Source: Candidatus Iainarchaeum sp.
GTDB lineage: Archaea > Iainarchaeota > Iainarchaeia > Iainarchaeales > JACQJH01
Assembly (NCBI GenBank): GCA_016205145.1
Contig: JACQJH010000001.1
Location: 420,001 to 452,000 of the forward strand
Direction: 5' to 3'
DNA: 32,000 nt
The translations under genes were made by a program, and so were the position numbers. How positions within the stretch are numbered: the first letter of the stretch is position 1; each line of letters starts with the position of its first letter. The notes beneath the pieces are model-generated. The model saw only the letters and a program-made list of their open reading frames with translations, did no database searches and was not told the origin of the DNA. Below are positions 878-30,843 of this stretch, in pieces.

Positions 878-944
878 CGCAAGGCAGCGATTCGTAAATT
901 TGATTTTTGTTTTTCCAGCCTAATGGCTGGCTGGAGAAAAAAAT

Positions 945-1062
945 GATTAGCAGCGTTCAGGCGGCTCCAAGCAGAAGCCCAGCGCCAACCTTTTCCCTGC
1001 AGGTCTTAACTTCCGGGTTCGAAACGAGTCCGGGTGTTTCCCCTGCGGTATGGCCGCTAATC
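945..1062 (-). rRNA. rrf: 5S ribosomal RNA (118 nt)
   Basis: The reverse complement reads GATTAGCGGCCATACCGCAGGGGAAACACCCGGACTCGTTTCGAACCCGGAAGTTAAGACCTGCAGGG...GCCTGAACGCTGCTAATC. It contains the archaeal 5S core CCCGG..TTTCGAACCCGGAAGTTAAG. The 5' GATTAGCGGC pairs with the 3' GCTGCTAATC (helix I). A T7 run follows one nucleotide after the 3' end on the minus strand (A7 at 937..943). Confidence 0.88.
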
Positions 1063-1199
1063 ACAATCAATTGGATATTGAAAGGTTTAAAAAACTACTT
1101 TCGCCATTCGGCAGGCTCCGCCGGCCCAAACCCCTGCAGCATTTTTTTTGCATTTTGCAGGCCTTGCTTTTTTTTTGTCCGGGCGTTTGCTTTTTGCGG

Positions 1200-1757
1200 C
1201 TACTTTTTCTTTTTCCCCTTTGCCTTTCTGCCGAGAATCATTTCTTCCGCGACTTTCAGGCCTTTTCTCAGCAGGCTTTCCTTTTTCGCGCCAGCGCAGA
1301 TCATTTTTCCGTTCTTGAACAGGAGCAAAGTTATTTTCGGCTCGGCTATGCGCAGTATCGCGCCCGGGAATTGTTCCGGCTCGTATTCGACGTTGTCGAG
1401 GTTCATTGCAATGCTGAACAAGTCAAGGGTCTTGTCGAGGTTTGCCGTCGCAACCAGGTTCACGACCTGGTATTCGACTTTTCTCTGCACTTTTACGGAG
1501 GGCTGGATGTCGTGGATGAGCTTTGACGCTTTTTTTATCCCAAGTTCAATCTGCTCCTCGTTGCTTGCGCCTGAACAGATTATTTTTCCGTTCTTGAACA
1601 GGAGCATTGAAACCTTGGGCTCCTTCAATTTCAGTATCGCGCCCGGGAATTGTTCCGGCTCGTATTCGATGTTCGGAACCGTTACCGCCAAGTTGTACAA
1701 GTCAAGCGTCGCGTTAAGCGTTGCCGAAGCAACCAAGTTCACAATCTGATATTTCAT
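1200..1757 (-). CDS. tbp: TATA-box binding protein
   Basis: Two internal direct repeats are typical of TBP (QIVNLVASATL..EYEPEQFPGAILKL..LLFKNGKIICSGA and QVVNLVATANL..EYEPEQFPGAILRI..LLFKNGKMICAGA). The C-terminal tail is Lys-rich. Confidence 0.95.
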   Translation of the reverse strand: MKYQIVNLVASATLNATLDLYNLAVTVPNIEYEPEQFPGAILKLKEPKVSMLLFKNGKIICSGASNEEQIELGIKKASKLIHDIQPSVKVQRKVEYQVVNLVATANLDKTLDLFSIAMNLDNVEYEPEQFPGAILRIAEPKITLLLFKNGKMICAGAKKESLLRKGLKVAEEMILGRKAKGKKKK

Positions 1758-17430: not shown

Positions 17431-17497
17431 GCATTGCCGGATTGGCGTGCGGAGCATGGCATTTGGTTTTTAACGTTTTTTGAGGGTGGTTTGTTTT

Positions 17498-17971
17498 ATG
17501 CCGGAAATAGGTGTTTTGGTTGAAGGCGGAAAAGCGACAGCGTCCGCTCCGTTGGGCCCGGCTTTGGGGCCTCTTGGAGTTAACATCGGCGAGGTTGTCA
17601 GCCAGATCAACGAGAAGACAAAGGCCTATGCCGGCATGAAGGTTCCGGTCAAGGTAATAGTCGATTCTTCCACGAAAAGCTTTGAAATCGAGGTCGGAAG
17701 CCCGCCTATGAGCGCGCTGGTCAAAAAGGAAATCAGCCTGCAGAAGGGAGCCGCCAACCCAAAGCTTGAAAACGTCGGAAATCTGACAATGGACCAGGTC
17801 AAAAAAATAGCGGAAATGAAGCTTGACGGCCTGACATCCTATTCCATGAAATCCGCGGCGCGCGAGGTCATTGGAACGTGCAATTCCATGGGCGTTTCGA
17901 TTGACGGCAAGAAAGCCAAGGACGTGCAGAGGGAATTCGACGCGGGCAATTTAGATTCAGTGTTCGGCTGA
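17498..17971 (+). CDS. rpl11: 50S ribosomal protein L11
   Basis: VEGGKATASAPLGPALGPLGVNIGEVV and SPPMSALVKKE. ATG 17498 is preceded by GAGGGTGG. Confidence 0.92.
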   Translation: MPEIGVLVEGGKATASAPLGPALGPLGVNIGEVVSQINEKTKAYAGMKVPVKVIVDSSTKSFEIEVGSPPMSALVKKEISLQKGAANPKLENVGNLTMDQVKKIAEMKLDGLTSYSMKSAAREVIGTCNSMGVSIDGKKAKDVQREFDAGNLDSVFG

Positions 17972-19360
17972 AAGCCTTTTTATTGCCTCATCCATGTTTT
18001 CCCCTATTAGATAGCTTATTACTCCGCGGACTTTTTGTTCCAGGCCGTTTAAGCTTTGCGTGCGCCTGCTGAGTTCATTGAATTCGGCTTGCCCCATTCT
18101 TATTGCCCGGTTGAAGCCCCTTTGCGCGATTTCCGTGCCTTTTGGCCCGTATCCCTGGGCAATTTCGGAAAAGTTGTCAAAAAAGTCGCCGAGCACGAGC
18201 CTTCTAGAATATTGTTCAAGGCTTTTCCTTGTTTTTATGCCGCCCAGGCCCAGGCGTGCGGCATAGCGTTTGACGCTTAGATTATCCGGGGCTGAATCTT
18301 CGCCGTACCGCACGCGCCTGTCGGCATTGTCGAAATCCATTGAAATTTGCCTGTGCCCCAATCCCAGATAGCCTATGGCCCTAATCTGGGGCTCGTTTTC
18401 GAGTTCCGGAAAAAAGCGTTTTGCTTCCCCGAACACGCCGCCCTGCAGGTTTTCCCTTATCCTGTTTTCCCTTATGGCGTCGCTTTCGCGGGAAATGTAA
18501 AATTCCTTTTCAAATGCTTTTTGCAGGCCGGCAAGGCTCTCTCCGGCTTGCAGGCGTTTCTTCAGGCCCTGCAAAATCGCATTCGATTCCTCTTCAGCCC
18601 GCGAAATGCGTTCAAGATCCGTTGCATCGTAATATTCGACCGGCATTATTCTTATGCCCTCGCGTGCCAATTCCAGCAACAGCTCGGATGCGAATTCCCC
18701 AAAATTGGAAAAATCGGGGGACGACCTGTAATGGTTCCTGACGTAGTCTTCCGCCTCCTTTTCTGGCAGGCCCCTGTTTCGAAGCGTTTCAAGGGCCGAT
18801 CTGATGTTGGCGGTTTCCGCATTCATATCGGCGATAAACCTTTGCATGTCGGCTTTCTTGAGGTAGGGGGATTCCATAAGAAAAACGTGGTACGGCCTGC
18901 CTTCCGCCCTTGCCGTGCGGATTTTGTCGATTATGGGCCGGGCATCGTGTGCCCGGATGTGCGGGCCGAAAAGCATTGACACGTCCGCCCTGCGCTCGGC
19001 ATCAGCCAAAAAAGGTATTTTCGGTCTAAGAAATATTGCCCCTGCTGTTGCGAGCATTCCGGCTATCACGCCGCGGCGGGTTCGGCCGGTTTTTTCGCTT
19101 TGTGGCATTTCGCGCACGCGCCGCATTGAAAGGTCGGGCCGTGTTTCCTCTCTTGCCGTTTGGCCTGCCCTGTGCCATGCTGCGGCCATTCTTTCGCGGA
19201 GGCCCATCACGGTTTCTGCCGGTGCTGGTTGTGCTTGCGGCGCTGGCTGCGGCTGTGGCGATGGTTGCGTGGGTTTTTTCCTGCCTCCGCCGGTTCTTTG
19301 GCTTCCGCCCGGCCCCTGCTTGCGCCCGCTGTTTCGCCCATTTCCGCCTCTTCTTGCCAT
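17957..19360 (-). CDS. hypothetical membrane-anchored protein with TraB/Tiki/ChaN-like motif pattern
   Basis: 467 aa. The N-terminus is a disordered basic Gly/Pro/Gln-rich stretch (MARRGGNGRNSGRKQGPGG...PQPQPAPQAQPAPAE). One TM helix follows (GVIAGMLATAGAIFL). The domain then carries FGPH, HVFLMES, SRESDAIRENRI and YLGLGH in that order, reminiscent of the GxxH / E / R(D/E) / GxxH pattern of the TraB-Tiki superfamily. This was judged by eye only. Confidence 0.5.
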   Translation of the reverse strand: MARRGGNGRNSGRKQGPGGSQRTGGGRKKPTQPSPQPQPAPQAQPAPAETVMGLRERMAAAWHRAGQTAREETRPDLSMRRVREMPQSEKTGRTRRGVIAGMLATAGAIFLRPKIPFLADAERRADVSMLFGPHIRAHDARPIIDKIRTARAEGRPYHVFLMESPYLKKADMQRFIADMNAETANIRSALETLRNRGLPEKEAEDYVRNHYRSSPDFSNFGEFASELLLELAREGIRIMPVEYYDATDLERISRAEEESNAILQGLKKRLQAGESLAGLQKAFEKEFYISRESDAIRENRIRENLQGGVFGEAKRFFPELENEPQIRAIGYLGLGHRQISMDFDNADRRVRYGEDSAPDNLSVKRYAARLGLGGIKTRKSLEQYSRRLVLGDFFDNFSEIAQGYGPKGTEIAQRGFNRAIRMGQAEFNELSRRTQSLNGLEQKVRGVISYLIGENMDEAIKRLSAEH

Positions 19361-19549: not shown

Positions 19550-20209
19550 ATGAAGCAAGGTGCAGTTGTTCAAGCACTCAAGGCAATGCGCGATGCCTCT
19601 AAGCAGCGCAAGTTCGTGCAGACCGTTGAAATGGTCGTCATTTTCAAGAACCTTAACATGAAAAAGAACGAGCACCAGATTGACCTGCGCGTCGAACTGC
19701 CGCACGCCACCGGCATGGGTTCGGGCAAGTCGCTTATTTTTATCAGGGACAAGACCTTTGCCTTCGAATTGAAGGGCAAGGTCGACCGCATCATAATGGA
19801 AAACGAGATTGAAAAGCTTTCAAAGAAGGATGTTGCCGCGCTCGCCGAAGAATTCGACCTTTTGCTTGCAGAGGGACCAGTCGCTTTGACTGTCGGAAAG
19901 TTTTGCGGTCAGGTTCTGGCGCCCAAGGGAAAAATGCCGAGGCCGGTCCCGCTAAATGTTCATCAGGTCCTGGAAATAGTCAAGTCTTCAAGCGCCGCCA
20001 CAAAGGTGTCGAACAAGAAGGGCAAAACCCTTGCATGCGTGCAGGCAGTCATCGGCAAGGAAAACATGTCCGACAACGATTTGGCCGACAATGCGGTCGC
20101 GCTTTACAATGCCGTTGTCAATGCCGTGCCGAGGAAAACGCAGAGCATCAAGTCGGTCATATTCAAGCCCACTATGGGCGCTCCGGTGAAGGTCGGTGAG
20201 GTTGAATGA
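19550..20209 (+). CDS. rpl1: 50S ribosomal protein L1
   Basis: KQRKFVQTVEMVVIFKNL.. and later ..GKMPRPVP... GGAGGT lies 9 nt upstream of the ATG. Confidence 0.92.
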   Translation: MKQGAVVQALKAMRDASKQRKFVQTVEMVVIFKNLNMKKNEHQIDLRVELPHATGMGSGKSLIFIRDKTFAFELKGKVDRIIMENEIEKLSKKDVAALAEEFDLLLAEGPVALTVGKFCGQVLAPKGKMPRPVPLNVHQVLEIVKSSSAATKVSNKKGKTLACVQAVIGKENMSDNDLADNAVALYNAVVNAVPRKTQSIKSVIFKPTMGAPVKVGEVE

Positions 20210-21796: not shown

Positions 21797-24187
21797 ATGC
21801 AAAAATTTTTTTCAAGAATTTTGCTCGCATTTTTTCTGCTGTCGTTGTTTGCGGGCGCTTTTGCCGTAATTCCAGATTCTTCCATGAACATTTTTGCGGT
21901 CATGGACGACGGCAAGGCGATTGATGCAGACCTTATTCTGCGCATCGAGCCGGGCAACGGCATGGTCTGGAGTTCGGTGCGCACGCTTGTCGGCACTTCA
22001 ACGCAGACAACGGAAAGGATTGCCGTAGAGCTGGCGAAAAACTATTACAAGAACGTTGGCGGTTTTGACTACAAGTTTGACATCAACAGTTCGGCTTCTC
22101 TTGTGGAAGGCCCGTCCGCGGGCGCGGCAATGGCTTTGCTTGTGATTTCCTCTCTGCAGGACAAGAAGGTGCCGGCTTTTGTCGGCCTCACCGGCACGAT
22201 CAATTCGGATGGCAGCATCGGTCCGGTCGGCGGGGTCTTTGAAAAGTCGCGCAAGGCCTCGCAGATTGGCATAAAGCTTTTCATGGTGCCGCAGGGCGAG
22301 GCCCAGCAGATTGTGAAGCTGCCTGACGGCGTGAAGTCCATTGACCTGACGGAGTATGCGGAAAAAGAGTGGGGCATGAAGGTTGTGGAAGTGGCCAACA
22401 TCGACGATGCATTGAAGTTTGCATTCATAAATCCCGCGGACCTTCCGTCGGGCGCTTCCGCCCCGGCTTTGCCTGAATTCGTGCCCATTGCCCTTCCGCC
22501 GAACGATAACCTTGTTTTCATGAAGGAGATAAACGCCGATTATATCAAGGAAGCCGAACGCATGGTCGGCGAGGCCCAGACCGCGCTGTCGGGCACCACG
22601 ATTTCCGACCCGGCCATTTTGGATGTCCTGCTTTCAACGCTGAATTCCTCCAAGACGCTTGTTGACCGCGCCAAGATTTCCTTCGAACAGAACTATTTTT
22701 ACAGTTCCGCGAATTTCGCGTTTTTGGCGCAGATAAACGCGTCCCTTGTTTACGACGTGGCCGCGAATCCCGGCATTTTGTCGGGCAATTCCACGGTTTT
22801 TTCGTCGAAGGTCTCGGATTTGAATGAAAAAATCGCGGCTCTTAAGCGCAAGCTCGGGCAGTCGATTTCGGTTTCCAGCGTTGAATGGCAGGTTTCCGCA
22901 ATGCAGCGCCTCGCTTACGCGGAAAACAATGTCCGGAACCTTTTGAACCCGGAAACGATTGTTGTCACTGTCGGGGAAGGCAGTGACCAGTATGCCGCGG
23001 CATTCCAGAAAATAAACGATCTGGAGTTTGCGGTTGCATGGTATAACGTTGCCGATGACCTGTATTCCAAGACTGACAAGGAAAATCACCGTGTCAAGCT
23101 GGATGACCGTTTTTCGAAGGACCTCGACTCTGCCCTGGCGGAACTGGAAAAAAAGATGTCCTCATTGCCGGACAGCGAGCTTGAGGACATCCAGCGCAGG
23201 CATGACACCGTTGTCCTGGAAAAATCTTCCGGCTGGTACATTGCAGGGCTGTTTGACGCGAAAACCGCAATCGCGTTTGTCGACGCTTTCAATGATTCCG
23301 AGGGCAAAAGCCTGGACGAGTTGCTGCCAATGCTTGACGAAAAAATCGGCCGGCTGGAAAAAAGGATGCTGGACGGCAATGTTTCCGTTGCCTGGCCCAG
23401 GCTTTATTTCGACCACGCAAAATACTATCTTGACGCCGCCAAATTTTACCGGCAGCAGGGCCAGCTGATCAAGGCGTCTGATAACGCGAAGTCCGGCCTG
23501 TCATTGGTTTACCTGGCGGACAACCTTTACGGCCTCACTGTTGAAGCCGACAGTTATTATGCAGGCCTCTCGGAATCGGCGTTTGTTCCGGAGCCGTCAG
23601 CTTCGCCTGCTTCAAAGCCATTGCAGCCGTTTCTGCCATTCGGCCTTAATGTTTCAGGCTTTCTGATGCCCTTGCTTGTCATTCTGGTCGTGCTCATTCT
23701 TGCCATCCTGTTGGCGGCGCTTTTCCCCTTCGCCCGGCTGCATGACTCTGCCGCCGCCAACAGAAAACGCATTGACGCGCTCAAAGGCATGCAGTTGGAA
23801 TTGGACAAACGGCTTTTGGCCGGAAAGATTTCCAAGCCGGATTACTGGGAAATGCACCTCAAATTCGAGCGCGAAATCCTTGCATCCGGGCAGGCGCTCC
23901 TGGCCGAATCAAGGCGCACTGTTGAACTGGAAAACATCCGCGCCGAGCTTTCCGCTTTGCAGGGCTCAGTGCATTCGTTGCGCGCCGATTACAGGAAAGG
24001 CTTTGTCGTCAGGCCTGACTTTGAAAGGAACCTGAAACAGAAAAGCGCCAGGATTGCCGAGCTGTCCTCAAGCCTCGATTCTGTCGCGGCCGGCAAGCCG
24101 TCCAAAAAGCGCTGGCCGCAGAATACAAAAAAGGCAGTGGCATCCAAAAACCAAGCAGCCAAGCGCAAAAATAAAAAGCGGAAATAA
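21797..24187 (+). CDS. membrane S16 (Lon-like) serine protease without an AAA+ module, long helical ectodomain, C-terminal TM and coiled-coil tail
   Basis: N-terminal signal/anchor ILLAFFLLSLFAGAFA. Lon proteolytic domain with GPSAG (Ser107, nt 22115..22117) and FEK (Lys150, nt 22244..22246), spaced 43 residues apart as in the Lon Ser-Lys dyad. A second TM is LMPLLVILVVLILAILLAALF. The tail has two SHOCT-like G-K-I-S..(D/E)-(Y/F) segments and a Lys-rich end. Confidence 0.8.
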   Translation: MQKFFSRILLAFFLLSLFAGAFAVIPDSSMNIFAVMDDGKAIDADLILRIEPGNGMVWSSVRTLVGTSTQTTERIAVELAKNYYKNVGGFDYKFDINSSASLVEGPSAGAAMALLVISSLQDKKVPAFVGLTGTINSDGSIGPVGGVFEKSRKASQIGIKLFMVPQGEAQQIVKLPDGVKSIDLTEYAEKEWGMKVVEVANIDDALKFAFINPADLPSGASAPALPEFVPIALPPNDNLVFMKEINADYIKEAERMVGEAQTALSGTTISDPAILDVLLSTLNSSKTLVDRAKISFEQNYFYSSANFAFLAQINASLVYDVAANPGILSGNSTVFSSKVSDLNEKIAALKRKLGQSISVSSVEWQVSAMQRLAYAENNVRNLLNPETIVVTVGEGSDQYAAAFQKINDLEFAVAWYNVADDLYSKTDKENHRVKLDDRFSKDLDSALAELEKKMSSLPDSELEDIQRRHDTVVLEKSSGWYIAGLFDAKTAIAFVDAFNDSEGKSLDELLPMLDEKIGRLEKRMLDGNVSVAWPRLYFDHAKYYLDAAKFYRQQGQLIKASDNAKSGLSLVYLADNLYGLTVEADSYYAGLSESAFVPEPSASPASKPLQPFLPFGLNVSGFLMPLLVILVVLILAILLAALFPFARLHDSAAANRKRIDALKGMQLELDKRLLAGKISKPDYWEMHLKFEREILASGQALLAESRRTVELENIRAELSALQGSVHSLRADYRKGFVVRPDFERNLKQKSARIAELSSSLDSVAAGKPSKKRWPQNTKKAVASKNQAAKRKNKKRK

Positions 24188-24208: not shown

Positions 24209-27200
24209 TCAGAATGCTTCGGCTGCCTCTTTTATGTGAAATTCTTTTCCGCCTTTGCCTGAATCGCTTTCGCCGCCGTTTTCGTTTTCCTTGTCCTGCG
24301 TGTCGGCCGCTTCCGTTATAGTGCCCTGCTTGAGCCTTATGCCTATGACCGAGCTTTTTTCCTTGTTCAACGCTACGCCGATTATCTGGTCGGCCTGCTT
24401 TATGAGCTGCTCATTGTGTGTGATTGCCAAAAACTGCGACGTCTTGCTAATCTCCTTTATCATTCTGCCAAGTTTGATGGAATTTTCGGCGTCAAGCGCG
24501 GCATCGGCCTCGTCGAAAACATAGAATGGCGCGGGCTCGTACAGCTGGATTGCGAACAGGAATGCGAGCGCTGTAAGGCTTTTTTCCCCGCCGCTCATGG
24601 AATCAATGTTCTGCAATGCTTCCTTGTGCTTTGCCTGGATTATGAGGCCGGCTTCAAGCGGGTTTTCCGGGTTGCTTAAAGAGAGGTTGCCTGCGCCGCT
24701 GAAAAACGAGTAGAACAGCCTGTTGAAGTTCTTGTTGATTGCGCTGAAGCAGTCCATGAAAACGTTTGTCCTTTTGACCTCGATTTTGCCTATCATGTCC
24801 AATACCGCGAGCCTTTCCTGTTCGAGTTTTCCGGATTTTTCGGTTATGTCGGAAACCTCTTTTTTGAGTTCCTCGAACGAGGCGACGGCGCGCATGTTTA
24901 TTGCGCCGAGCTTTTGGATGCGCTTTTCTATTTCGGGAACCCTTCTCTTGAGCTCTTCCAGGTCGAACCTTTCAAGCGGCTTTGTTCCCTCGAACAGTTT
25001 GGATTCCTCTTTGAGGTCGTTTTCCCTTACTTCAAGCCTGCTGTTTTCAATGATGACCTGGTTTTCAACCTGCTCGGTTTTTTTTATCCTCTGCCTGTGC
25101 GTTTCAATGCGCTCGGCAAATGACCCGGCTTTTTCGGAAACGCGTTTCCTTTTTTCCGCCATGCCCTCGCTTTCCTTCTGCGCCTTTTTCAGGCTGTCCT
25201 GCAGGTCCGAGATTTCGGATTGCAGAATGCCGATGCTTTTACCTTCCGCTGAAACCTGTTCTTCGGCTGAAGAATTTTCAGAGCGTTTTGCGGAAATTTC
25301 CTCAAGGACGCCTTTCCTTTCCGAGTCGAGCCTGGCAAGCCTTTCGTTTTGGATGCCTGACTGTTTCTGCTCGTCAAGGCTTACCTGCCTTTCAAGCTGG
25401 GCTATTCTTGATGCAAGCTCCCCGGCTTTGGAATAGCTTGTCTCTGAAAAAAACGCGTCGATTTCAGCCTGCTTTTGGTGCATTGCCTTCCTGTGCCCGT
25501 CAAGGTTTCTTGCATGCCCGTGCATTCTTGCCTCTTTTTCGGCGAGGCTTTTTCCAGAGAGCGTTGAATTGAGCGCTTCAATGTTTTTAGTCGCGGCCGA
25601 CAGTTCGGCTTCAAGCTCTTCGAGGCCGAAAACTTTTTCCCTGTGCCCTGCAACCTCGTCCAAAACCTGTCTGAGCCGCTGCCTTGACTTTTCGGCCTGT
25701 TCGAGCAAGGCTTTTTCCTTTTCCATTTCCTGTTCGGCCAGCTTTTTTTCGGAAAGCCTTTTTTCCAAGAGAATTTTTTTGCGCTCCAGTTCAAGCGGCT
25801 TTTCGCAGACCGGGCAGCTTGAAATGTCCTTTTTGAGTTCGAGAACCGCTTTTTCCGCCTGCCTTGCCGCGGCTTCAAGCTGTTTCAATTTTTCAATCGA
25901 TTTTTTCTGGCCGGCAAAATTGCTTTCAAGCGCTTCCTCCGGGTCGGGGGTCTGCCTCAAAATGTCCGAAAGCCTTGCCTTGAACGCGCGTTTGTGCCCG
26001 GCTTTTTTTTCCGCGCCCTCGGCGCGCGCCTTTTCGGCTTCAAGCTTTTCCCGCACGCTTTCAAGCCACTTTTTTTCCCTTTCCAGATCGATTTCGCATT
26101 TGTGCAGGTTTTCAAGCCCTTCCGCGAGCCTTGCATCGATTTCCTTTTTTTCCCTTTCAAGCTGTTTTCTCGAGGATTCCTTTTCAGAAATTTTTTTGTC
26201 TAATGCGGCCTTCTCGTTTTTGAGTTCGGCGGCCTGCTGCCTGAGTTTCGGCAGAGCCGACTCGATTTTTTGCGTTTCCTCTTCCAGCGTCCTGCGTTCT
26301 TCCAGCAGTGCGGAGGCCTTTTTTTCAAGCCTTTCAATCTCGCTTTCGTTGCGCTGCATTGCCTGCGATTTGCCCCTCACTTTTTCCTCCAAAACGCCTT
26401 TTTTCGCCTTTTTTTCCTCGAGCTTTACCCCGATTTCCGAATACGTTTTTTCGCTCGCCTTCAGCAGTGCTTCTTCAAGCGCCTTTTCCTCTGCTGCCAG
26501 GCCGGAGAGTTCCTGCGCGAGTTCCGAGATTTTCGCCTCGATTTCCGATTTCTCAGAACGCGCCCTGAGGATTTTCGCGTCGTTCTCGGTTTTAGCCTTC
26601 AAAACCCTTTCAAGTTCGCCGAAAATGATTGTAGCCTTGGCCTGCTTTTTTTCGCTTTCAAGGCTGCCGAATTCCATTGCCGCCTTCCTTTCGGCGTCAA
26701 GCTCTTCCAGGTATTTTTCCCTTTCCTTGAGGACAATCCCCGCTTCTTTTATGCGCGAGTCGACTTTTTCAAGCTCTTTCAGGGCTTCCTCTTTTTTTTC
26801 ATCGAATTCGCTTAAGCCCGCGACCTCGTCGATTATTTCGCGCCTCTGCTGCGAGGACATTTCCATTATCCTGGTTATGTCGCCCTGCACGACGATGTTG
26901 TGGCCGGCCGGCTTTATGCCCAGCTCGCCCAGCAGAGAGGAAATTTCGTTGAGAGTCTTTTTTTCGCTGTCAAGCCTGTAAACGCTTTTTCCCTGCTTGT
27001 CGACCATCCTGCTGATTTCAAACTTTTTGTCATTCTCCTTTTCCCTTAACACTATGTCGCATTTCGCATAGCCTTCGTTCGACGAATAGTTGACCAGGTC
27101 AGTGAGCCGGCTTGCGCGCAGCATTTTAAGCGAGGTTATGCCGAAGCCGAACATGAGCGCGTCAAGCAGGTTGCTTTTTCCGCTGCCATTGCTGCCGGCA

Positions 27201-27286
27201 ATGACCGTGAATCCGTCGGCAATCGGCATTTCGGCTTTCCTGAACGACTTGAAGTTCTTGAGCCTCATATGGGACAGTTTTATCAT
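24209..27286 (-). CDS. smc: SMC-family chromosome ATPase with canonical SMC heads, no recognisable hinge, and a CPVC zinc-hook-like motif at the coiled-coil apex
   Basis: N-head: NFKSF, Walker A GSNGSGKSN, LRASRLTDLV and NIVVQGDITRIMEMS. C-head: signature MSGGEKSLTALAFLFAIQ, Walker B FYVFDEADAALD and QFLAITHN. At 1025 aa it is about 150 aa shorter than typical archaeal SMC. Residues ~165-850 read as continuous heptad-rich coiled coil. SSCPVCEKPL is at residues 489-498 (CPVC at nt 25805..25816). Confidence 0.85.
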   Translation of the reverse strand: MIKLSHMRLKNFKSFRKAEMPIADGFTVIAGSNGSGKSNLLDALMFGFGITSLKMLRASRLTDLVNYSSNEGYAKCDIVLREKENDKKFEISRMVDKQGKSVYRLDSEKKTLNEISSLLGELGIKPAGHNIVVQGDITRIMEMSSQQRREIIDEVAGLSEFDEKKEEALKELEKVDSRIKEAGIVLKEREKYLEELDAERKAAMEFGSLESEKKQAKATIIFGELERVLKAKTENDAKILRARSEKSEIEAKISELAQELSGLAAEEKALEEALLKASEKTYSEIGVKLEEKKAKKGVLEEKVRGKSQAMQRNESEIERLEKKASALLEERRTLEEETQKIESALPKLRQQAAELKNEKAALDKKISEKESSRKQLEREKKEIDARLAEGLENLHKCEIDLEREKKWLESVREKLEAEKARAEGAEKKAGHKRAFKARLSDILRQTPDPEEALESNFAGQKKSIEKLKQLEAAARQAEKAVLELKKDISSCPVCEKPLELERKKILLEKRLSEKKLAEQEMEKEKALLEQAEKSRQRLRQVLDEVAGHREKVFGLEELEAELSAATKNIEALNSTLSGKSLAEKEARMHGHARNLDGHRKAMHQKQAEIDAFFSETSYSKAGELASRIAQLERQVSLDEQKQSGIQNERLARLDSERKGVLEEISAKRSENSSAEEQVSAEGKSIGILQSEISDLQDSLKKAQKESEGMAEKRKRVSEKAGSFAERIETHRQRIKKTEQVENQVIIENSRLEVRENDLKEESKLFEGTKPLERFDLEELKRRVPEIEKRIQKLGAINMRAVASFEELKKEVSDITEKSGKLEQERLAVLDMIGKIEVKRTNVFMDCFSAINKNFNRLFYSFFSGAGNLSLSNPENPLEAGLIIQAKHKEALQNIDSMSGGEKSLTALAFLFAIQLYEPAPFYVFDEADAALDAENSIKLGRMIKEISKTSQFLAITHNEQLIKQADQIIGVALNKEKSSVIGIRLKQGTITEAADTQDKENENGGESDSGKGGKEFHIKEAAEAF

Positions 27287-27311: not shown

Positions 27312-28118
27312 TCACTCGAAACCGCCATGCTCTTTCCGGATGTAATAAACCGGCAGGACAAGAAAATAATATGCCGTTGCGGCCAGCGCAAAAACGGTTT
27401 CGGCCGCGGCTGAAAGGATTTCATTCCGGCTGAAATACTGCGTCGCAATGAAAGCGCCAATGTTTGAAAGCAGTGCCGAGAACGCGCCCGCCGCGAGCAG
27501 CAAAACGATTATTCCTAAAAGATGCTTTCCTGAGAACTCCCAGGTTTTTTTCAGGCCCTCCTTGAGGCTCAAATCATCGGCTGCAATGATTGTCAGGAGC
27601 ATTGAAAGCTTTATTGCAATGTACGCCGCGGCAAGGAGAAGCACTATGACTGCGATTCCGCCGAAAAAAGCTGACTGCGCCGAAACAAACTGCACGAGCC
27701 AGTACGCAAAAAAGCCTATTGCGGCGACCGACGCGAAAAAAACCGCGATGGCCAGTCCCTTTCCGATGCTTTTGTTGGCATACACGAACGCGGAGGAGGA
27801 CTCCTGCCCGCCTTCAAGGTTTTTTGCGAAATGCGCGTAGAATGCGGTTAACCAGAATGCCAGAACAAATGAAAACGCGAGCTGTATGCCCAGAATTCCG
27901 AGATTGTAGCCGTAAATTGAAATGAAATGGAACGGCTGCTGCAACAGGCCGGTTTCAGGCGCGGCGTTTTGCGCGAGAACGCCGAAAACAAGGTCGCCGA
28001 TCGCCGGCCCGGTCAGGGACAATGAAACGAAATTGGCGAGCGCCACGGCAAGCGCAGGAAAAACCAGCAATGGCTTTGAAGCCACCAATGCGATTGGTTT
28101 GGCTAAGGACTTGAACAT
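27312..28118 (-). CDS. polytopic membrane protein of unknown function
   Basis: 268 aa with about 6 hydrophobic helices. It ends 25 nt upstream of the smc start on the same strand. Confidence 0.6.
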   Translation of the reverse strand: MFKSLAKPIALVASKPLLVFPALAVALANFVSLSLTGPAIGDLVFGVLAQNAAPETGLLQQPFHFISIYGYNLGILGIQLAFSFVLAFWLTAFYAHFAKNLEGGQESSSAFVYANKSIGKGLAIAVFFASVAAIGFFAYWLVQFVSAQSAFFGGIAVIVLLLAAAYIAIKLSMLLTIIAADDLSLKEGLKKTWEFSGKHLLGIIVLLLAAGAFSALLSNIGAFIATQYFSRNEILSAAAETVFALAATAYYFLVLPVYYIRKEHGGFE

Positions 28119-28209: not shown

Positions 28210-28782
28210 TTATGCCGGAGCGCAGACTTCCTGGCCGGCGCAGGACTCGTCCGGCACAATGAATCCTTCCGGGGCCGGGCATTTTTCCGAATAAATGCAG
28301 GACTCATTTGAAACGCTGTCCAGCATTTCCCGGCTTGGCGGGTTTTCGCCGAAGCTTATGAGAATCCTGTCCAAATCCTTTGGCTTATAGCTTCCGAATC
28401 CGCTGTTCGGAACGCCGTTCACGAACATCCGCAGCTTTCCGCCGTTGCCATTGCAGTGTTCGGCAAGGCCGTCATTGAAGCAGTTTTCGTTGAAGCCCAT
28501 TCCGATGCCCGTGAAAAAATCCGCGAGTGTTGCATCCGGGCCGTGGAAATGAATGACGTTCGGGTTGAAGTCGTGGAGGTGCGCAATGGGTGAAAGCGGC
28601 ATTGCGCCGGTGCTCATGAACTGCGCCCTGTTGAAGTCGACCTGCGCCCCGTCAATGAAAACCTTGAAGTCGGCGTGGACGTGGTATGGCTCAGAGCTTT
28701 GCGTCTGCACGCATCCCGCCAATGCAAGGGCCGCGAGCGCCACGCAAACCGGCCACAAAAAATGCGCTGGTTTCAATTCCAC
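28210..28782 (-). CDS. secreted/lipobox protein with His-rich motifs and Cys-rich C-terminus
   Basis: GTG 28782 gives ELKPAHFLWPVCVALAALALAGC, a signal peptide plus a lipobox-like LAGC. The mature part carries YHVHADF, AHLHDF, VIHFHGPD and 4+ C-terminal Cys. The longer ORF to 29037 would overlap the divergent rpl44e start. Confidence 0.55.
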   Translation of the reverse strand: MELKPAHFLWPVCVALAALALAGCVQTQSSEPYHVHADFKVFIDGAQVDFNRAQFMSTGAMPLSPIAHLHDFNPNVIHFHGPDATLADFFTGIGMGFNENCFNDGLAEHCNGNGGKLRMFVNGVPNSGFGSYKPKDLDRILISFGENPPSREMLDSVSNESCIYSEKCPAPEGFIVPDESCAGQEVCAPA

Positions 28783-28977
28783 ACAATCGCCTTGAAATGC
28801 TTTTTTTTGTTTTGGTGTTTTAGTAGTTGAATGGGAATTATCTTTAATGTCTTTTCGCCCGGTTCCGGAAGCCACCAATAGAGTTTTAAACCATCCACTG
28901 CCATATTTTGTAACTGTTTTTTGCCTTCTCCTGGCAAAAAATCTTCGCAAAAAAAGCATTTTTTTAAGGCATTTTTC

Positions 28978-29253
28978 ATGAACATTCCAAAGGTCATAAG
29001 GACTTACTGCAGGAAGTGCAACCAGCACACCGAGCATAAGCTCAAGATTTTCAAGTCGGGCAAGGCAAGGGCCATGTCCGAAGGCCAGAGGAAAAACATC
29101 CAGAAGAAAAAGGGCTACAAGGGAAAATACCAGTTTACGGCCGTTGTCAAGAAGCAGAACAAGAAGCCCACCTTTGTCGCCGAATGCTCTGTCTGCGGCT
29201 CAAAGCACTACCATGTCGTGCCCAAGCGCATGAAAAAAGTCGAGCTGACTTAA
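28978..29253 (+). CDS. rpl44e: 50S ribosomal protein L44e (eL42)
   Basis: MNIPKVIRTYCRKCNQHTEHK...CSVCGSKH is the zinc-ribbon CxxC...CxxC pattern of L44e. The start is set at ATG 28978. Confidence 0.9.
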   Translation: MNIPKVIRTYCRKCNQHTEHKLKIFKSGKARAMSEGQRKNIQKKKGYKGKYQFTAVVKKQNKKPTFVAECSVCGSKHYHVVPKRMKKVELT

Positions 29254-29580: not shown

Positions 29581-30426
29581 ATGGCCGCGCATAATTCGAT
29601 TTTGTTAATCATCAAGCAGCATAACGGCATCGACCAGGTCTCACTGCTCAACAAGCTTTCCCAGAACTATGCGAGCATGAATTCCGCGCGCGCCGCATTG
29701 AGCCGCGCCTTGAAGGACCTTTCAGCTGTCGGTCTTATCCAGAAAAAGGATAACGCGATTTTTGTCACGGACAAGGGAAACACACTAATCCACTCGGAAA
29801 TGAAAAACAAGCTGTTGCTCAAGCTCAACACTTCCATAAAGCAGAAGGACAGCCTCAACCACATCGACGAAATTGTCAGCCAGCTTTCAACTCTCATTGC
29901 AAGGGCGAAGGCCGACTCCGACCTGCTGAAAGCCGCAAAGGGCAGCACGGACTTCTATTTGTCCGACCTCAACGAGCTGAGCGAAGGCCTTGACCGGCGC
30001 ATAAAGCAGTTCTCCTATCTTGACGGCGTCCTCAAAAACCAGATAACTGCATTGCAGGAACTCAACTTCTACGACGCAAGGCAGTTCGAATGGGCTTCTC
30101 AGGCCCTCGAACTCATAAAATCGGTTCCATCGCAGACCGAAGGCAACACTTTCACTGTGGAATGCCTCAACGAATCCTTTTTTGAAACAGTGAAGCAGGC
30201 CTTCCAGCCGAAAGTGCAGGGCAAAAACATAGTGCTCGAAGACCAGTCACTGCCGAACCTGCTCATGCTCTTGCAGGAAAACCATTCGCTCGAATACAAC
30301 ACAGTCAACCTCTATTTTGCCACAATCCGCATCAGAATTTCCTTTCCGCAAATCCTGTTGTTCGGGCCGTACCAAAAGCTCGAGGAACTGCAGAAAGCAG
30401 GTGCCTTGGCAGCGGCAAAAAAATAG
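29581..30426 (+). CDS. hypothetical protein with N-terminal winged-helix (MarR/ArsR-like) domain
   Basis: ILLIIKQHNGIDQVSLLNKLSQ...ALSRALKDLSAVGLIQKKDNAIFVTDKGNTL resembles a wHTH. The remaining ~200 aa are helical and of unknown function. Confidence 0.55.
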   Translation: MAAHNSILLIIKQHNGIDQVSLLNKLSQNYASMNSARAALSRALKDLSAVGLIQKKDNAIFVTDKGNTLIHSEMKNKLLLKLNTSIKQKDSLNHIDEIVSQLSTLIARAKADSDLLKAAKGSTDFYLSDLNELSEGLDRRIKQFSYLDGVLKNQITALQELNFYDARQFEWASQALELIKSVPSQTEGNTFTVECLNESFFETVKQAFQPKVQGKNIVLEDQSLPNLLMLLQENHSLEYNTVNLYFATIRIRISFPQILLFGPYQKLEELQKAGALAAAKK

Positions 30427-30504: not shown

Positions 30505-30540
30505 TTGCGCCCGCCGGGATTCGAACCCGGGTCATGACCT

Positions 30541-30649
30541 TGTTCCGCACGGAATGTCGTCCTTTACAGCAGGAATTTTTGCTGGGGTTTACTCGGCGTA
30601 TTGCAAAAGCAATACGCCTTGGTTTCGAACCCGCCGGACGAAACCGGCG
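30541..30649 (-). other. tRNA-Gly intron (109 nt)
   Basis: It lies between the exon boundaries given above. About 82 of its nucleotides are repeat copy 5, read antisense. Confidence 0.75.
30567..30648 (+). repeat. structured repeat, copy 5 (inside the tRNA-Gly intron, antisense to the tRNA)
   Basis: Hairpin 0 is CAGCA-ggaatttt-TGCTG. TTACTC is at 30589. Hairpin 1 is GGCGTATTGC-aaaa-GCAATACGCC, followed by TTGGTTTCGAACCC and then GCCGG-acgaaa-CCGGC. It ends 1 nt from the 5' splice site. Confidence 0.85.
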
Positions 30650-30843
30650 TGGGAAGGTCAGATGCTACCATTACACCACAGGCGCGCCTGCATTGTTTTT
30701 TTTGCTGAAGCAGACGATAAAAAGGTGAAAGTTAGATTTTTTAAAACCGACAATTTTTTGCCGCTCCGCCGGAACGAGTTGCCAGAAAAGCTTTTATAGG
30801 CTGCAACCGTTTCTTTTTTTGCCAGCTTTTTTGGTGATCGTAT

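Follow-up and report, generated by a model that had tools for sequence, protein, structure and literature searches.

The open reading frame at 24,209 to 27,286 of the analysed window (the whole stretch of DNA under study, 32,000 nucleotides from Candidatus Iainarchaeum sp.) raises the question of whether an SMC protein may occur in nature with a Rad50-type zinc hook in place of its hinge. An earlier note on this DNA had proposed precisely such an architecture on an SMC head, and the in silico analysis presented here supports that reading. Three findings named beforehand as speaking against it have been looked for, namely a hinge match in the protein, absence of CxxC conservation in the orthologues, and a head placed within Rad50 or another known hook-bearing family; none of them was encountered. 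The head scores, the identity of the apex, the conservation of the CPxC motif and the phylogeny jointly indicate the SMC of this lineage with a hinge-to-hook swap, and not a Rad50. It is considered probable that the protein is the housekeeping SMC orthologue (the prokaryotic condensin ATPase) of Iainarchaeota/Diapherotrites (DPANN), in which the hinge has been replaced in place by a zinc hook of about 15 residues.

Gene and domain organization

The 1025-residue reading frame described in the earlier note has been recovered on the (-) strand with an ATG start, and the CPVC motif falls on exactly the residues and nucleotides given there. The deduced protein is identical to an NCBI entry labelled 'AAA family ATPase' from Ca. 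Diapherotrites archaeon. The gene and its parts are as follows:

24209..27286, (-) strand: hook-type SMC gene, 1025 aa and stop codon (open reading frame listing)
26819..27286, (-) strand: N-terminal half of the ABC ATPase head, aa 1-156 (AF2 secondary structure and translated motifs)
27170-27196, (-) strand: Walker A, GSNGSGKSN, aa 31-39 (translated sequence)
26879-26899, (-) strand: Q-loop, NIVVQGD (translated sequence)
25835..26812, (-) strand: N-terminal coiled-coil arm helix, aa 159-484 (AF2 helices 159-368, 370-445 and 449-484)
25790..25834, (-) strand: apex loop KKDISSCPVCEKPLE, aa 485-499, 15 residues (non-helical in both AF2 models)
25805-25816, (-) strand: putative zinc-hook motif CPVC, aa 491-494 (translated sequence)
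24701..25789, (-) strand: C-terminal coiled-coil arm helix, aa 500-862 (AF2; joint-like breaks at aa 765-776 and 793-800)
24332..24700, (-) strand: C-terminal half of the ABC ATPase head, aa 863-985 (motifs; PDB sequence matches to Smc heads)
24581-24595, (-) strand: signature, SGGEK, aa 898-902 (translated sequence)
24509-24526, (-) strand: Walker B, FYVFDE, aa 921-926 (translated sequence)
24410-24424, (-) strand: H-loop, ITHNE (translated sequence)
24209..24325, (-) strand: acidic, Gly-rich C-terminal tail, aa 988-1025, and stop codon (pLDDT <50)

The Walker A, Q-loop, signature, Walker B, D-loop and H-loop elements are all present and make up a complete split ABC ATPase head. The following residues are invariant in an alignment of 115 sequences: G31, N33, G36, K37, Q134, S898-K902, D925, E926, D928 and H957. 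The C-terminal tail is not conserved, and homologues cover only about 96% of the protein.

Identity of the head

The head halves, assigned in the earlier note to SMC rather than Rad50, show this affiliation in profile scores, PDB matches, Foldseek ranking and the head tree alike. The highest-scoring model is TIGR02169 SMC_prok_A with 536.4 bits (1.3e-160), while TIGR02168 gives 394.3 bits; both values lie below the equivalog cut-offs (729.4 and 567.35, respectively), a deficit that corresponds to the missing hinge segment and is expected for a hingeless protein. The Pfam SMC_N family is matched across aa 4-977 with 157 bits (5e-46), the gathering score being 40. Among the Rad50 models NF003034 scores highest, with 112 bits where the cut-off lies at 700; the ASRP model NF045487 reaches 91.8 bits against 300, and the arcadin-4 model 29 bits.

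In a PDB sequence search the Pyrococcus Smc heads (5xei, 5xns, 4i99) are the best matches at 3e-91, whereas Rad50 heads are found merely at 1e-14. With the full-length AF2 model as a query, Foldseek places condensin Smc4, P. yayanosii Smc (5xei, matched over the head and joint) and P. furiosus Smc in the lead, with TMt values up to 0.86, and Rad50 appears for the first time at rank 17.

Arms and absence of the hinge

The arms follow the SMC profiles on both sides of the apex. Residues 6-490 align to SMC_prok_A positions 4-495 and residues 499-975 to TIGR02168 positions 690-1170, so that the hinge stretch of the profile (about 495-690) is bypassed, and the arms, of about 325 and 360 residues, remain within a few residues of the profile length on each side. 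The full-length AF2 model (pLDDT 78.5) consists in this part of helices 159-484 and 500-862, and no globular middle domain was found in it. The earlier note had described a hingeless protein with an uninterrupted coiled coil; the absence of the hinge stands in the Pfam, HMM and AF2 analyses, whereas the coil turned out to contain a few short breaks.

The Pfam SMC_hinge model (PF06470), a match to which had been named as an argument against the hingeless reading, finds nothing anywhere in the protein even at E<=10. With a local hinge HMM, searched under --max, the lowest E-value among the 120 family members is 0.73. On hinge-bearing SMCs this HMM gives 1e-52 to 1e-79, and Pfam detects the hinge in DPANN SMCs at about 1e-33; both served as positive controls. 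Profile alignment and structural prediction together confirm that a hinge of about 160-190 residues is cleanly swapped for the predicted apex hook, with the arms kept.

The apex hook

The likeness of the apex to the archaeal Rad50 hook, pointed out in the earlier note, is borne out by a profile of this region, whose significant matches in the PDB are confined to two zinc hooks of P. furiosus Rad50, 1L8D (1.4e-8) and 6ZFF (6e-8); the next match follows at 0.046. The aligned core, LKKA..CPVC..L....ELL, includes the flanking heptads and yields 38 bits over about 80 residues. Of 33 family members, 29 give a match to the Rad50_zn_hook model (PF04423) at E<=0.01. Taken alone, the window protein scores 15.4-20 bits, under the gathering score of 24.3, and a short-arm relative (L014) exceeds it with 25.5 bits. 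In the AF2 prediction the apex region is a helical hairpin with CPxC on the tip loop and no thioredoxin fold. A Foldseek search with just the apex fragment did not discriminate (best E-value 0.19; 1L8D at 0.7).

In the 115-sequence alignment C491, P492 and C494 are conserved in at least 90% of the sequences, and the arms are otherwise barely conserved. The window protein contains five cysteines in total, and the conserved ones are limited to C491, C494 and the head residue C846. These features point to putative zinc binding and dimerization through the hook, as read from about 40 residues of sequence.

Conservation and phylogeny of the family

The CPxC motif, whose conservation in orthologues the earlier note had put forward as a test, is kept in 118 of 120 homologues with an overall identity of 37-46%, and as judged from these sequences this conservation is far in excess of chance. 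Some members of the clade (P0096, P0108 and L015) have lost the CxxC, and their persistence means that the hook is not absolutely indispensable in every lineage.

The head tree was constructed by the NJ distance method from 395 head columns with 100 bootstraps and carries no Rad50 or MukB outgroup. The hook proteins form one clade (100% bootstrap), the sister of which is a hinge-bearing group (L016; 100%) with members also labelled Ca. Diapherotrites, and both are nested among DPANN SMCs. For the head placement asked about in the earlier note, the profile scores, the PDB matches, the Foldseek ranking and this tree together put the protein inside SMC and outside Rad50, ASRP and the other known hook-bearing families. 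Among the 80 loci kept, none carries a second SMC from an assembly with the hook SMC, and none of the hinge-bearing matches listed appears to share a contig with it, which suggests one SMC per genome in these archaea.

Genomic neighbourhood

Two genes located upstream on the same strand, reported in the earlier note as a membrane and a lipobox protein, have been found at the following positions:

27312..28118, (-) strand: polytopic membrane protein gene, GPDPase_memb-like, 268 aa, 25 nt from the SMC start
28210-29037, (-) strand: lipobox-like protein gene (open reading frame reading)

A box resembling TTAATATA lies upstream of the membrane protein gene. The Pfam GPDPase_memb model gives 17.5 bits for the window copy and 36.5 bits, over the gathering score, for the copy at another locus (L006). 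In each of the 13 hook-type loci a homologue of this membrane protein is encoded directly upstream of the hook SMC and on its strand, and none was found beside hinge-bearing SMCs, the sister clade included. The membrane protein gene is probably co-transcribed with the hook SMC; a functional tie between the two is an unproven, candidate link.

The absence of adjacent ScpA/ScpB genes noted earlier extends to the whole 32-kb window and to +-6-10 kb around the 13 hook-type loci, as searched with local ScpA/ScpB HMMs at E<=1. For comparison, scpA lies directly 3' of smc in 51 other loci. Two hinge-bearing loci of the sister clade likewise have no adjacent scpA, and for this reason its absence is not specific to the hook. 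A ScpA database search returned matches from Aenigmatarchaeota only. No mre11 or other metallophosphoesterase gene was found among the open reading frames of the window or the called genes of the orthologous loci, nor were herA and nurA found in the window.

The hook SMC adjoins the genes of a Lon-like protease-rpl12-rpl10-rpl1-rpl11...ftsZ and of pyrimidine synthesis, and this gene order is kept in the orthologous loci. A defence-related SMC-like ATPase (Lamassu LmuB, MADS3 or Wadjet JetC) has been rejected on account of weak model scores and these housekeeping neighbours: the PADLOC values for mad3 (172 bits) and LmuB (77 bits) reflect generic SMC-head similarity, and the NCBIfam MADS3 model gives 31 bits against a cut-off of 420.

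Proposed mechanism

Each protomer is predicted to fold back on itself, giving a head as well as a coiled coil that is antiparallel and about 50 nm long, with CPxC on the tip loop. The analogy with Rad50, and the fact that a tetrahedral site is not completed by two cysteines, suggest that one Zn2+ would be shared by two protomers through four cysteines; a constitutive apex-to-apex homodimer would thereby replace dimerization by the hinge. Head engagement and ATP hydrolysis would proceed as in Smc, since the residues of the Walker A/B, Q-loop, signature, D-loop and H-loop are invariant. On the chromosome the dimer may then serve as a motor of the SMC type that entraps DNA or extrudes loops; a kleisin whose gene lies in another part of the genome would presumably close it.

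The capacity of such an architecture to sustain Smc function is demonstrated by Smc(Zh), a B. subtilis Smc engineered to bear the hook of P. furiosus Rad50, which supports normal growth (Buermann et al. 2017, PMC5344682). The reverse swap, in Rad50-MukB/Smc-hinge chimeras, is functional in yeast Rad50 (Tatebe et al. 2020, PMC6969161).

Alternative explanations

A divergent Rad50 that is merely SMC-like would act with Mre11 in the repair of DNA double-strand breaks, tethering and processing the ends. The CPxC hook of Rad50 type on the tip of the coiled coil, the missing hinge and the weak matches to NCBIfam Rad50 models (2e-32) agree with it; against it stand an advantage of more than 400 bits for the SMC models, the preference for Smc heads in the PDB and Foldseek searches, arms aligning over their full length to SMC profiles, and the lack of mre11, herA and nurA in the window. 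Together with a head tree that nests the protein in DPANN SMCs beside a hinge-bearing sister, these scores led to the rejection of a Rad50 identity of the heads; this reading is already largely refuted and its probability is close to negligible. It is also quite unlikely that the protein is an SMC-derived paralogue, comparable to ASRP/ClsN, LmuB or MADS3, with a new, non-condensin function beside a canonical SMC encoded elsewhere. Other hook-bearing SMC-related archaeal families such as ASRP/ClsN are known (PMC9389158), the smc-scpA linkage is lost, a lineage-specific membrane-protein neighbour has been gained and PADLOC mad3 reaches 172 bits. However, the ASRP (92 bits) and MADS3 (31 bits) scores remain far under the SMC score of 536, and the clade occupies the place expected of the lineage's SMC orthologue, as sister to the hinge-bearing Diapherotrites SMCs. 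The paralogue reading is further weakened by the lack of a second SMC from these assemblies among the 80 loci kept, by a ribosomal and cell-division context instead of a defence island, and by the two hinge-bearing sister loci that are also without adjacent scpA.

The CPxC motif may alternatively form a redox-active or structural disulfide, or a staple of the hairpin at the arm tip, with dimerization achieved otherwise, e.g. through arm-arm or head-head contacts. Glutaredoxin- and DsbA-type redox motifs resemble CPxC, and the members without CxxC show that some forms manage without it. The likeness to the Rad50 hook nevertheless goes beyond two cysteines, extending to LKKA..CPVC..L and the flanking heptads; moreover, the apex is a helical hairpin only, two cysteines per chain fit the 2+2 stoichiometry of Rad50, and apart from C846 the hook pair has no conserved cysteine partner. 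Such a role of the CPxC motif is therefore regarded as very unlikely. A change of mechanism is the last possibility: a hook-SMC working without ScpAB and partnered by the membrane protein co-located in 13 of 13 loci might serve as a Rad50-like machine, associated with the membrane, that tethers or segregates DNA, and might unite the roles of condensin and Rad50 in a reduced genome. It is judged unlikely, and if true it would represent a new kind of SMC complex. The preferred reading remains that of a housekeeping SMC with the hinge exchanged for a hook.

Relation to known systems

Canonical Smc of the Smc-ScpAB type (e.g. Pyrococcus) shares with the window protein the ABC head, the joint, the arm length and the phylogenetic placement. 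It differs in possessing a hinge instead of the 15-residue CPxC loop and in having scpA often directly 3' of smc, in contrast to the hook-type loci. The Rad50/SbcC hook (PF04423; 1L8D, 6ZFF) has the apex motif and its flanks in common with the window protein, on the tip of a coiled coil with antiparallel strands, whereas the heads and arms differ and the Mre11 neighbour is absent from the window. The residue following the second cysteine is G in Rad50 and mostly D/E in the hook-SMC family.

The Smc(Zh) chimera is identical in design, with Smc head and arms and a Rad50 hook for the hinge. It was made in the laboratory, whereas the archaeal form is natural, ancient and fixed in a clade of at least 118 sequence clusters at about 40% identity. 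ASRP/ClsN (coalescin)/Sph1-2 are zinc-hook proteins related to SMC and specific to archaea (PMC9389158); like the window protein, they are archaeal ATPases of the SMC superfamily whose coiled coil carries a CxxC hook in the place of a hinge, but ASRP is a separate, shorter family (NCBIfam profile of 593 positions), the cut-off of which the window protein does not approach. The 'hinge-less' SMC of marine Actinobacteria is bacterial and reported to be without CXXC (Sussfeld et al. 2025, PMC12153180). It represents a natural loss of the hinge within the SMC clade, as does the window protein, and it is closer to the rare hook-less forms P0096 and L015.

Significance

A literature search revealed no paper on a natural SMC with a hook in place of the hinge, and the protein is the natural counterpart of a chimera that had until now been met solely as a laboratory construct. 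Its annotation as a mere 'AAA family ATPase' follows from the missing hinge, which drops such proteins under the SMC cut-offs.

The roles credited to the SMC hinge beyond dimerization include binding of DNA, service as a gate for DNA entry and communication with the heads, and its replaceability has so far been backed mainly by engineered chimeras. The clade described here provides a long-lived natural experiment, in which the hook-SMC, apparently the only SMC of a whole archaeal lineage, has diverged to about 40% identity with the arm length and head motifs retained. It would offer a native Smc(Zh) for structural and single-molecule tests of whether the hinge is needed for loop extrusion or DNA entrapment, and its natural relatives with short arms, without a hook or of the mini-SMC form would constitute a ready series for the study of arm-length rules. 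For the superfamily as a whole, it indicates that modules have been exchanged, or have converged, between the Rad50 and SMC branches.

SMC head and absence of the hinge

The gene at 24209..27286 on the minus strand is an open reading frame with an ATG start, encoding 1025 aa, and all motifs quoted in the earlier note are present on its direct translation. The identical NCBI entry is named "AAA family ATPase [Candidatus Diapherotrites archaeon]" and lies on a 612,963-bp contig. The protein contains five cysteines only. The motifs read from the direct translation are:

aa 31-39, Walker A, GSNGSGKSN
Q-loop, NIVVQGD
aa 491-494 (nt 25805-25816), CPVC
aa 898-902, signature, SGGEK
aa 921-926, Walker B, FYVFDE
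H-loop, ITHNE

The assignment of the head to SMC, not Rad50, which the earlier note had made from motifs, is borne out by profile searches. Pfam SMC_N matches aa 4-977 (5e-46), and the bit scores are 536 for SMC (TIGR02169), 112 for the best Rad50 model, 92 for the model of ASRP (an archaeal SMC-related family with a zinc hook), 31 for MADS3 and 29 for arcadin-4. Among PDB sequences the Pyrococcus Smc heads are matched best (3e-91), the Rad50 heads only at 1e-14. The plain database name is explained by the SMC score, which is under the TIGR02169 equivalog cut-off of 729 bits. A role as a defence ATPase of the Lamassu, MADS or Wadjet type was rejected in view of the scores and the genomic context.

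The claim that the protein is hingeless also stands. Pfam SMC_hinge gives no match in it, even at E<=10, the precomputed SMC_hinge domain is found in none of the best 120 database homologues, and a local hinge HMM never scores better than E=0.73 on 120 family members. The test is sensitive, because control SMCs score strongly: canonical SMCs of Nanoarchaeia and Woesearchaeota (other DPANN) and of Methanosarcina give about 1e-33 with Pfam SMC_hinge, and the local HMM gives 1e-52 to 1e-79 on hinge-bearing proteins. The breakpoints were taken from NCBIfam profile coordinates; global MAFFT and BLASTP alignments against hinge-bearing SMCs slid along the low-complexity coiled coil. Positions 4-495 of TIGR02169 align with aa 6-490, and positions 690-1170 of TIGR02168, likewise an SMC equivalog, with aa 499-975, so that the hinge segment is passed over while both arms are of normal length.

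Predicted zinc-hook apex

The apex is, by sequence, a Rad50-type hook and not just any CxxC, as had been proposed earlier from the CPVC motif. Among all PDB sequences, an apex profile built from aa 450-540 of 33 sequences matches significantly only the P. furiosus Rad50 zinc hooks 1L8D (1.4e-8) and 6ZFF (6e-8); the match after these falls to E 0.046. When the 33 members were scanned singly, Pfam Rad50_zn_hook was found at E<=0.01 in 29, with a best E of 4.8e-7; in the window protein itself the match is sub-threshold, at 15-20 bits (gathering score 24.3). The likeness to the Rad50 hook reaches past the cysteines, the family consensus being aikeLkKaiakCPvCdskLeeekKkellekK. A short-arm hook-type SMC of 772-790 aa from a Ca. 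Iainarchaeum MAG (L014:4949-7264) has CPVC at aa ~380, and its hook scores 25.5 bits, above the gathering score.

The best 120 database homologues are 985-1025 aa long, longer where inteins are present, and 37-46% identical to the window protein. CPxC is retained at the arm midpoint in 118 of them, so the cysteine pair is indeed conserved among orthologues, the check that the earlier note had named. C491, P492 and C494 are each at least 90% conserved, and the arms elsewhere are almost without conserved columns.

Inteins (Intein_splicing with a LAGLIDADG homing endonuclease) interrupt several of the hook-type SMC genes and bring the proteins to ~1200-1560 aa: L001:10001-14617 (P0111, archaeon GW2011_AR10), P0107, P0119, P0100, P0116 and L009. 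All five P-numbered proteins among these were checked and keep the CPxC hook.

Predicted structure

The AlphaFold2 model of the window protein (115 homologues, pLDDT 78.5) has no globular middle domain and is divided as follows:

aa 1-156, N-terminal head half
aa 159 to 484, helix
aa 485-499, non-helical apex
aa 500 to 862, helix with short breaks, including joint-like ones at 765-776 and 793-800
aa 863-985, C-terminal head half
aa 988-1025, disordered tail

In a Foldseek search of the PDB, the top matches are condensin Smc4, the head and joint of P. yayanosii Smc and the P. furiosus Smc head (TMt up to 0.86), with Rad50 only at rank 17. The apex modelled alone (aa 450-540, pLDDT 92.5) is predicted to be a helical hairpin with CPVC on a seven-residue loop. 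Foldseek with this 91-residue model returned only generic helical hairpins (best E 0.19, the P. furiosus Rad50 hook 1L8D at 0.7) and was not discriminating.

Distribution and head phylogeny

The named sources of the best 120 homologues are Ca. Diapherotrites, Ca. Iainarchaeum, "archaeon" and, once, Micrarchaeota. In a scan of GTDB species genomes, hook-type genes (L005-L014) occur, among the matches listed, only in MAGs labelled Iainarchaeota or Diapherotrites and in unnamed archaeal MAGs.

A neighbour-joining tree was built from 395 head-domain columns of 55 sequences with 100 bootstraps. The method is distance-based and the tree has no outgroup from Rad50 or MukB, a gap that the HMM and structural comparisons fill. 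One clade, supported at 100%, unites all hook-type proteins and a few derivatives that lack the hook. Sister to it, again at 100%, is L016, an SMC of 1186 aa whose hinge is normal (2e-52). Together they fall, weakly (56%), among other DPANN SMCs. Taken with the profile and structural comparisons, the tree places the heads inside SMC, the point of head phylogeny raised in the earlier note. The group of L016, as found by a search with it, is made up of hinge-bearing SMCs of 1163-1192 aa, several of them likewise labelled Ca. Diapherotrites, followed by Micrarchaeota.

Neither hinge nor CxxC is present in P0096, P0108 (924 aa), L015:6001-8721, P0270, P0281 and P0291 (915-932 aa). In P0096 and P0108 the C-terminal arm is additionally shortened by a deletion of ~69 aa. 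The placement of P0096, P0108 and L015 within the hook clade implies that their cysteines were lost secondarily. The simplest reading is that the hook replaced the hinge once, in the ancestor of a large subclade of Iainarchaeota, and that the cysteines were later lost in rare cases, namely these three. No second SMC was seen for the hook-bearing genomes among the hinge-bearing matches listed or the 80 loci listed, both tests being incomplete.

Gene neighbourhood and partners

The setting is one of archaeal housekeeping: rpl11, rpl1, rpl10, rpl12, FtsZ, a Lon-like protease, L44e, pyrimidine-biosynthesis genes, 5S rRNA and an intron-bearing tRNA. Genes near smc include:

21797-24187 (+), Lon-like protein of 796 aa, membrane-anchored, Lon_C proteolytic domain present, no AAA module detected, convergent with smc
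27312-28118 (-), polytopic, GPDPase_memb-like membrane protein of 268 aa, separated from the smc start by 25 nt
29581-30426 (+), protein of 281 aa whose N-terminal winged-helix domain is strongly conserved, no family assignment

A membrane protein gene of ~260 aa directly precedes smc on the same strand, with a 25-60 nt spacer, in 13 of 13 hook-type loci with upstream sequence; the winged-helix protein is encoded nearby in 12 of 13. Neither occurs in any of the hinge-bearing SMC loci examined, those of the sister clade among them. Downstream of smc, the convergent Lon-like protease and the ribosomal-protein cluster recur in nearly all hook-type loci; the position of the lipobox protein pointed out in the earlier note is not conserved. 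A TTAATATA-like box upstream of the membrane protein gene suggests that this gene and smc form a two-gene operon. The only resemblance of the membrane protein is to the GPDPase_memb membrane domain, beyond which Pfam and PADLOC found nothing meaningful in either protein. A disguised kleisin or kite was rejected for both (hhalign against ScpA/ScpB alignments, <1% probability).

With local ScpA/ScpB HMMs, scpA was found directly 3' of smc in 51 hinge-bearing loci of archaea and bacteria, including the Aenigmatarchaeota mini-SMC loci. The same HMMs detected neither gene in the window, as noted earlier, nor within 6-10 kb on either side of any hook-type gene; Mre11 is likewise not found in the window. 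Missing ScpA/ScpB is not peculiar to the hook form, as they are also lacking from two hinge-bearing loci in the sister clade. A DPANN ScpA profile run against a 5.8-billion-protein database is uninformative for Iainarchaeota, all 120 matches listed being Aenigmatarchaeota-like. A kleisin-free, membrane-linked SMC/Rad50 hybrid machine, a reading drawn only from the gene neighbourhood, is improbable.

Natural "mini-SMCs" of ~812-841 aa were observed in Aenigmatarchaeota and unnamed archaea (L018, L020, L021, L022, L027, L028, L039). Their SMC_hinge is normal (Pfam 1e-33 to 1e-37 at aa ~350-465, four scanned), but the arms, at only ~180 aa, reach roughly half of the canonical length. Of the seven loci, six have scpA next after smc, and four have scpB as well. 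These proteins are a natural counterpart of engineered mini-Smc proteins.

Other features of the window include a tRNA at 30506-30685 (-) (Rfam, 43.5 bits); the match spans 180 nt and therefore implies a long intron, and ARAGORN reports no tRNA in the window. A 5S rRNA gene lies at 945-1061 (-) (Rfam, 67 bits), and the 280-aa ORF at 907-1749 (+) that overlaps it is probably at least partly spurious. A 467-aa ORF without a Pfam match, 17957-19360 (-), is located between rpl11 (17480-17971) and rpl1 (19550-20209). In the orthologous locus L003, rpl11 and rpl1 lie next to each other, and the ORF may have been inserted into the ribosomal-protein cluster in this lineage specifically.

Proposed mechanism and relation to known systems

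By sequence and model, the SMC ATPase head is intact, the SMC arm is of full length and its tip carries a predicted Rad50-like CPxC loop; the interpretation of the earlier note is supported by heads, hinge absence, hook and phylogeny. It is likely that the protein is the SMC native to this lineage and that its Rad50-type zinc hook is functional. By analogy with Rad50, two chains would share one Zn2+, because the two cysteines of a single chain are too few for a tetrahedral site, and would form a constitutive apex-to-apex homodimer in place of hinge dimerisation. Head engagement would be driven by ATP as in Smc, and the ring would probably be closed by a kleisin encoded elsewhere. Such an architecture is viable, since B. 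subtilis Smc engineered with the P. furiosus Rad50 hook supports normal growth (PMC5344682) and Rad50 with an SMC hinge is functional in yeast (PMC6969161).

Rad50/SbcC shares the hook but differs in head family, and ASRP/ClsN (PMC9389158) is a hook-bearing archaeal family separate from SMC. The marine actinobacterial "hinge-less" SMC (PMC12153180) is a natural hinge loss, but explicitly without CXXC. The engineered Smc(Zh) has the same design but is artificial. The window protein departs from SMC in one defining feature, the hinge, and from Rad50 in head and partner; it is best described as a variant of SMC, not as a member of any hook-bearing family. The full-text literature searched, with most subscription-only papers outside it, does not describe any naturally occurring SMC orthologue that bears a zinc hook, including in DPANN or Iainarchaeota. 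The principle has already been shown by laboratory chimeras; a natural, clade-wide Smc(Zh) is notable and experimentally useful.
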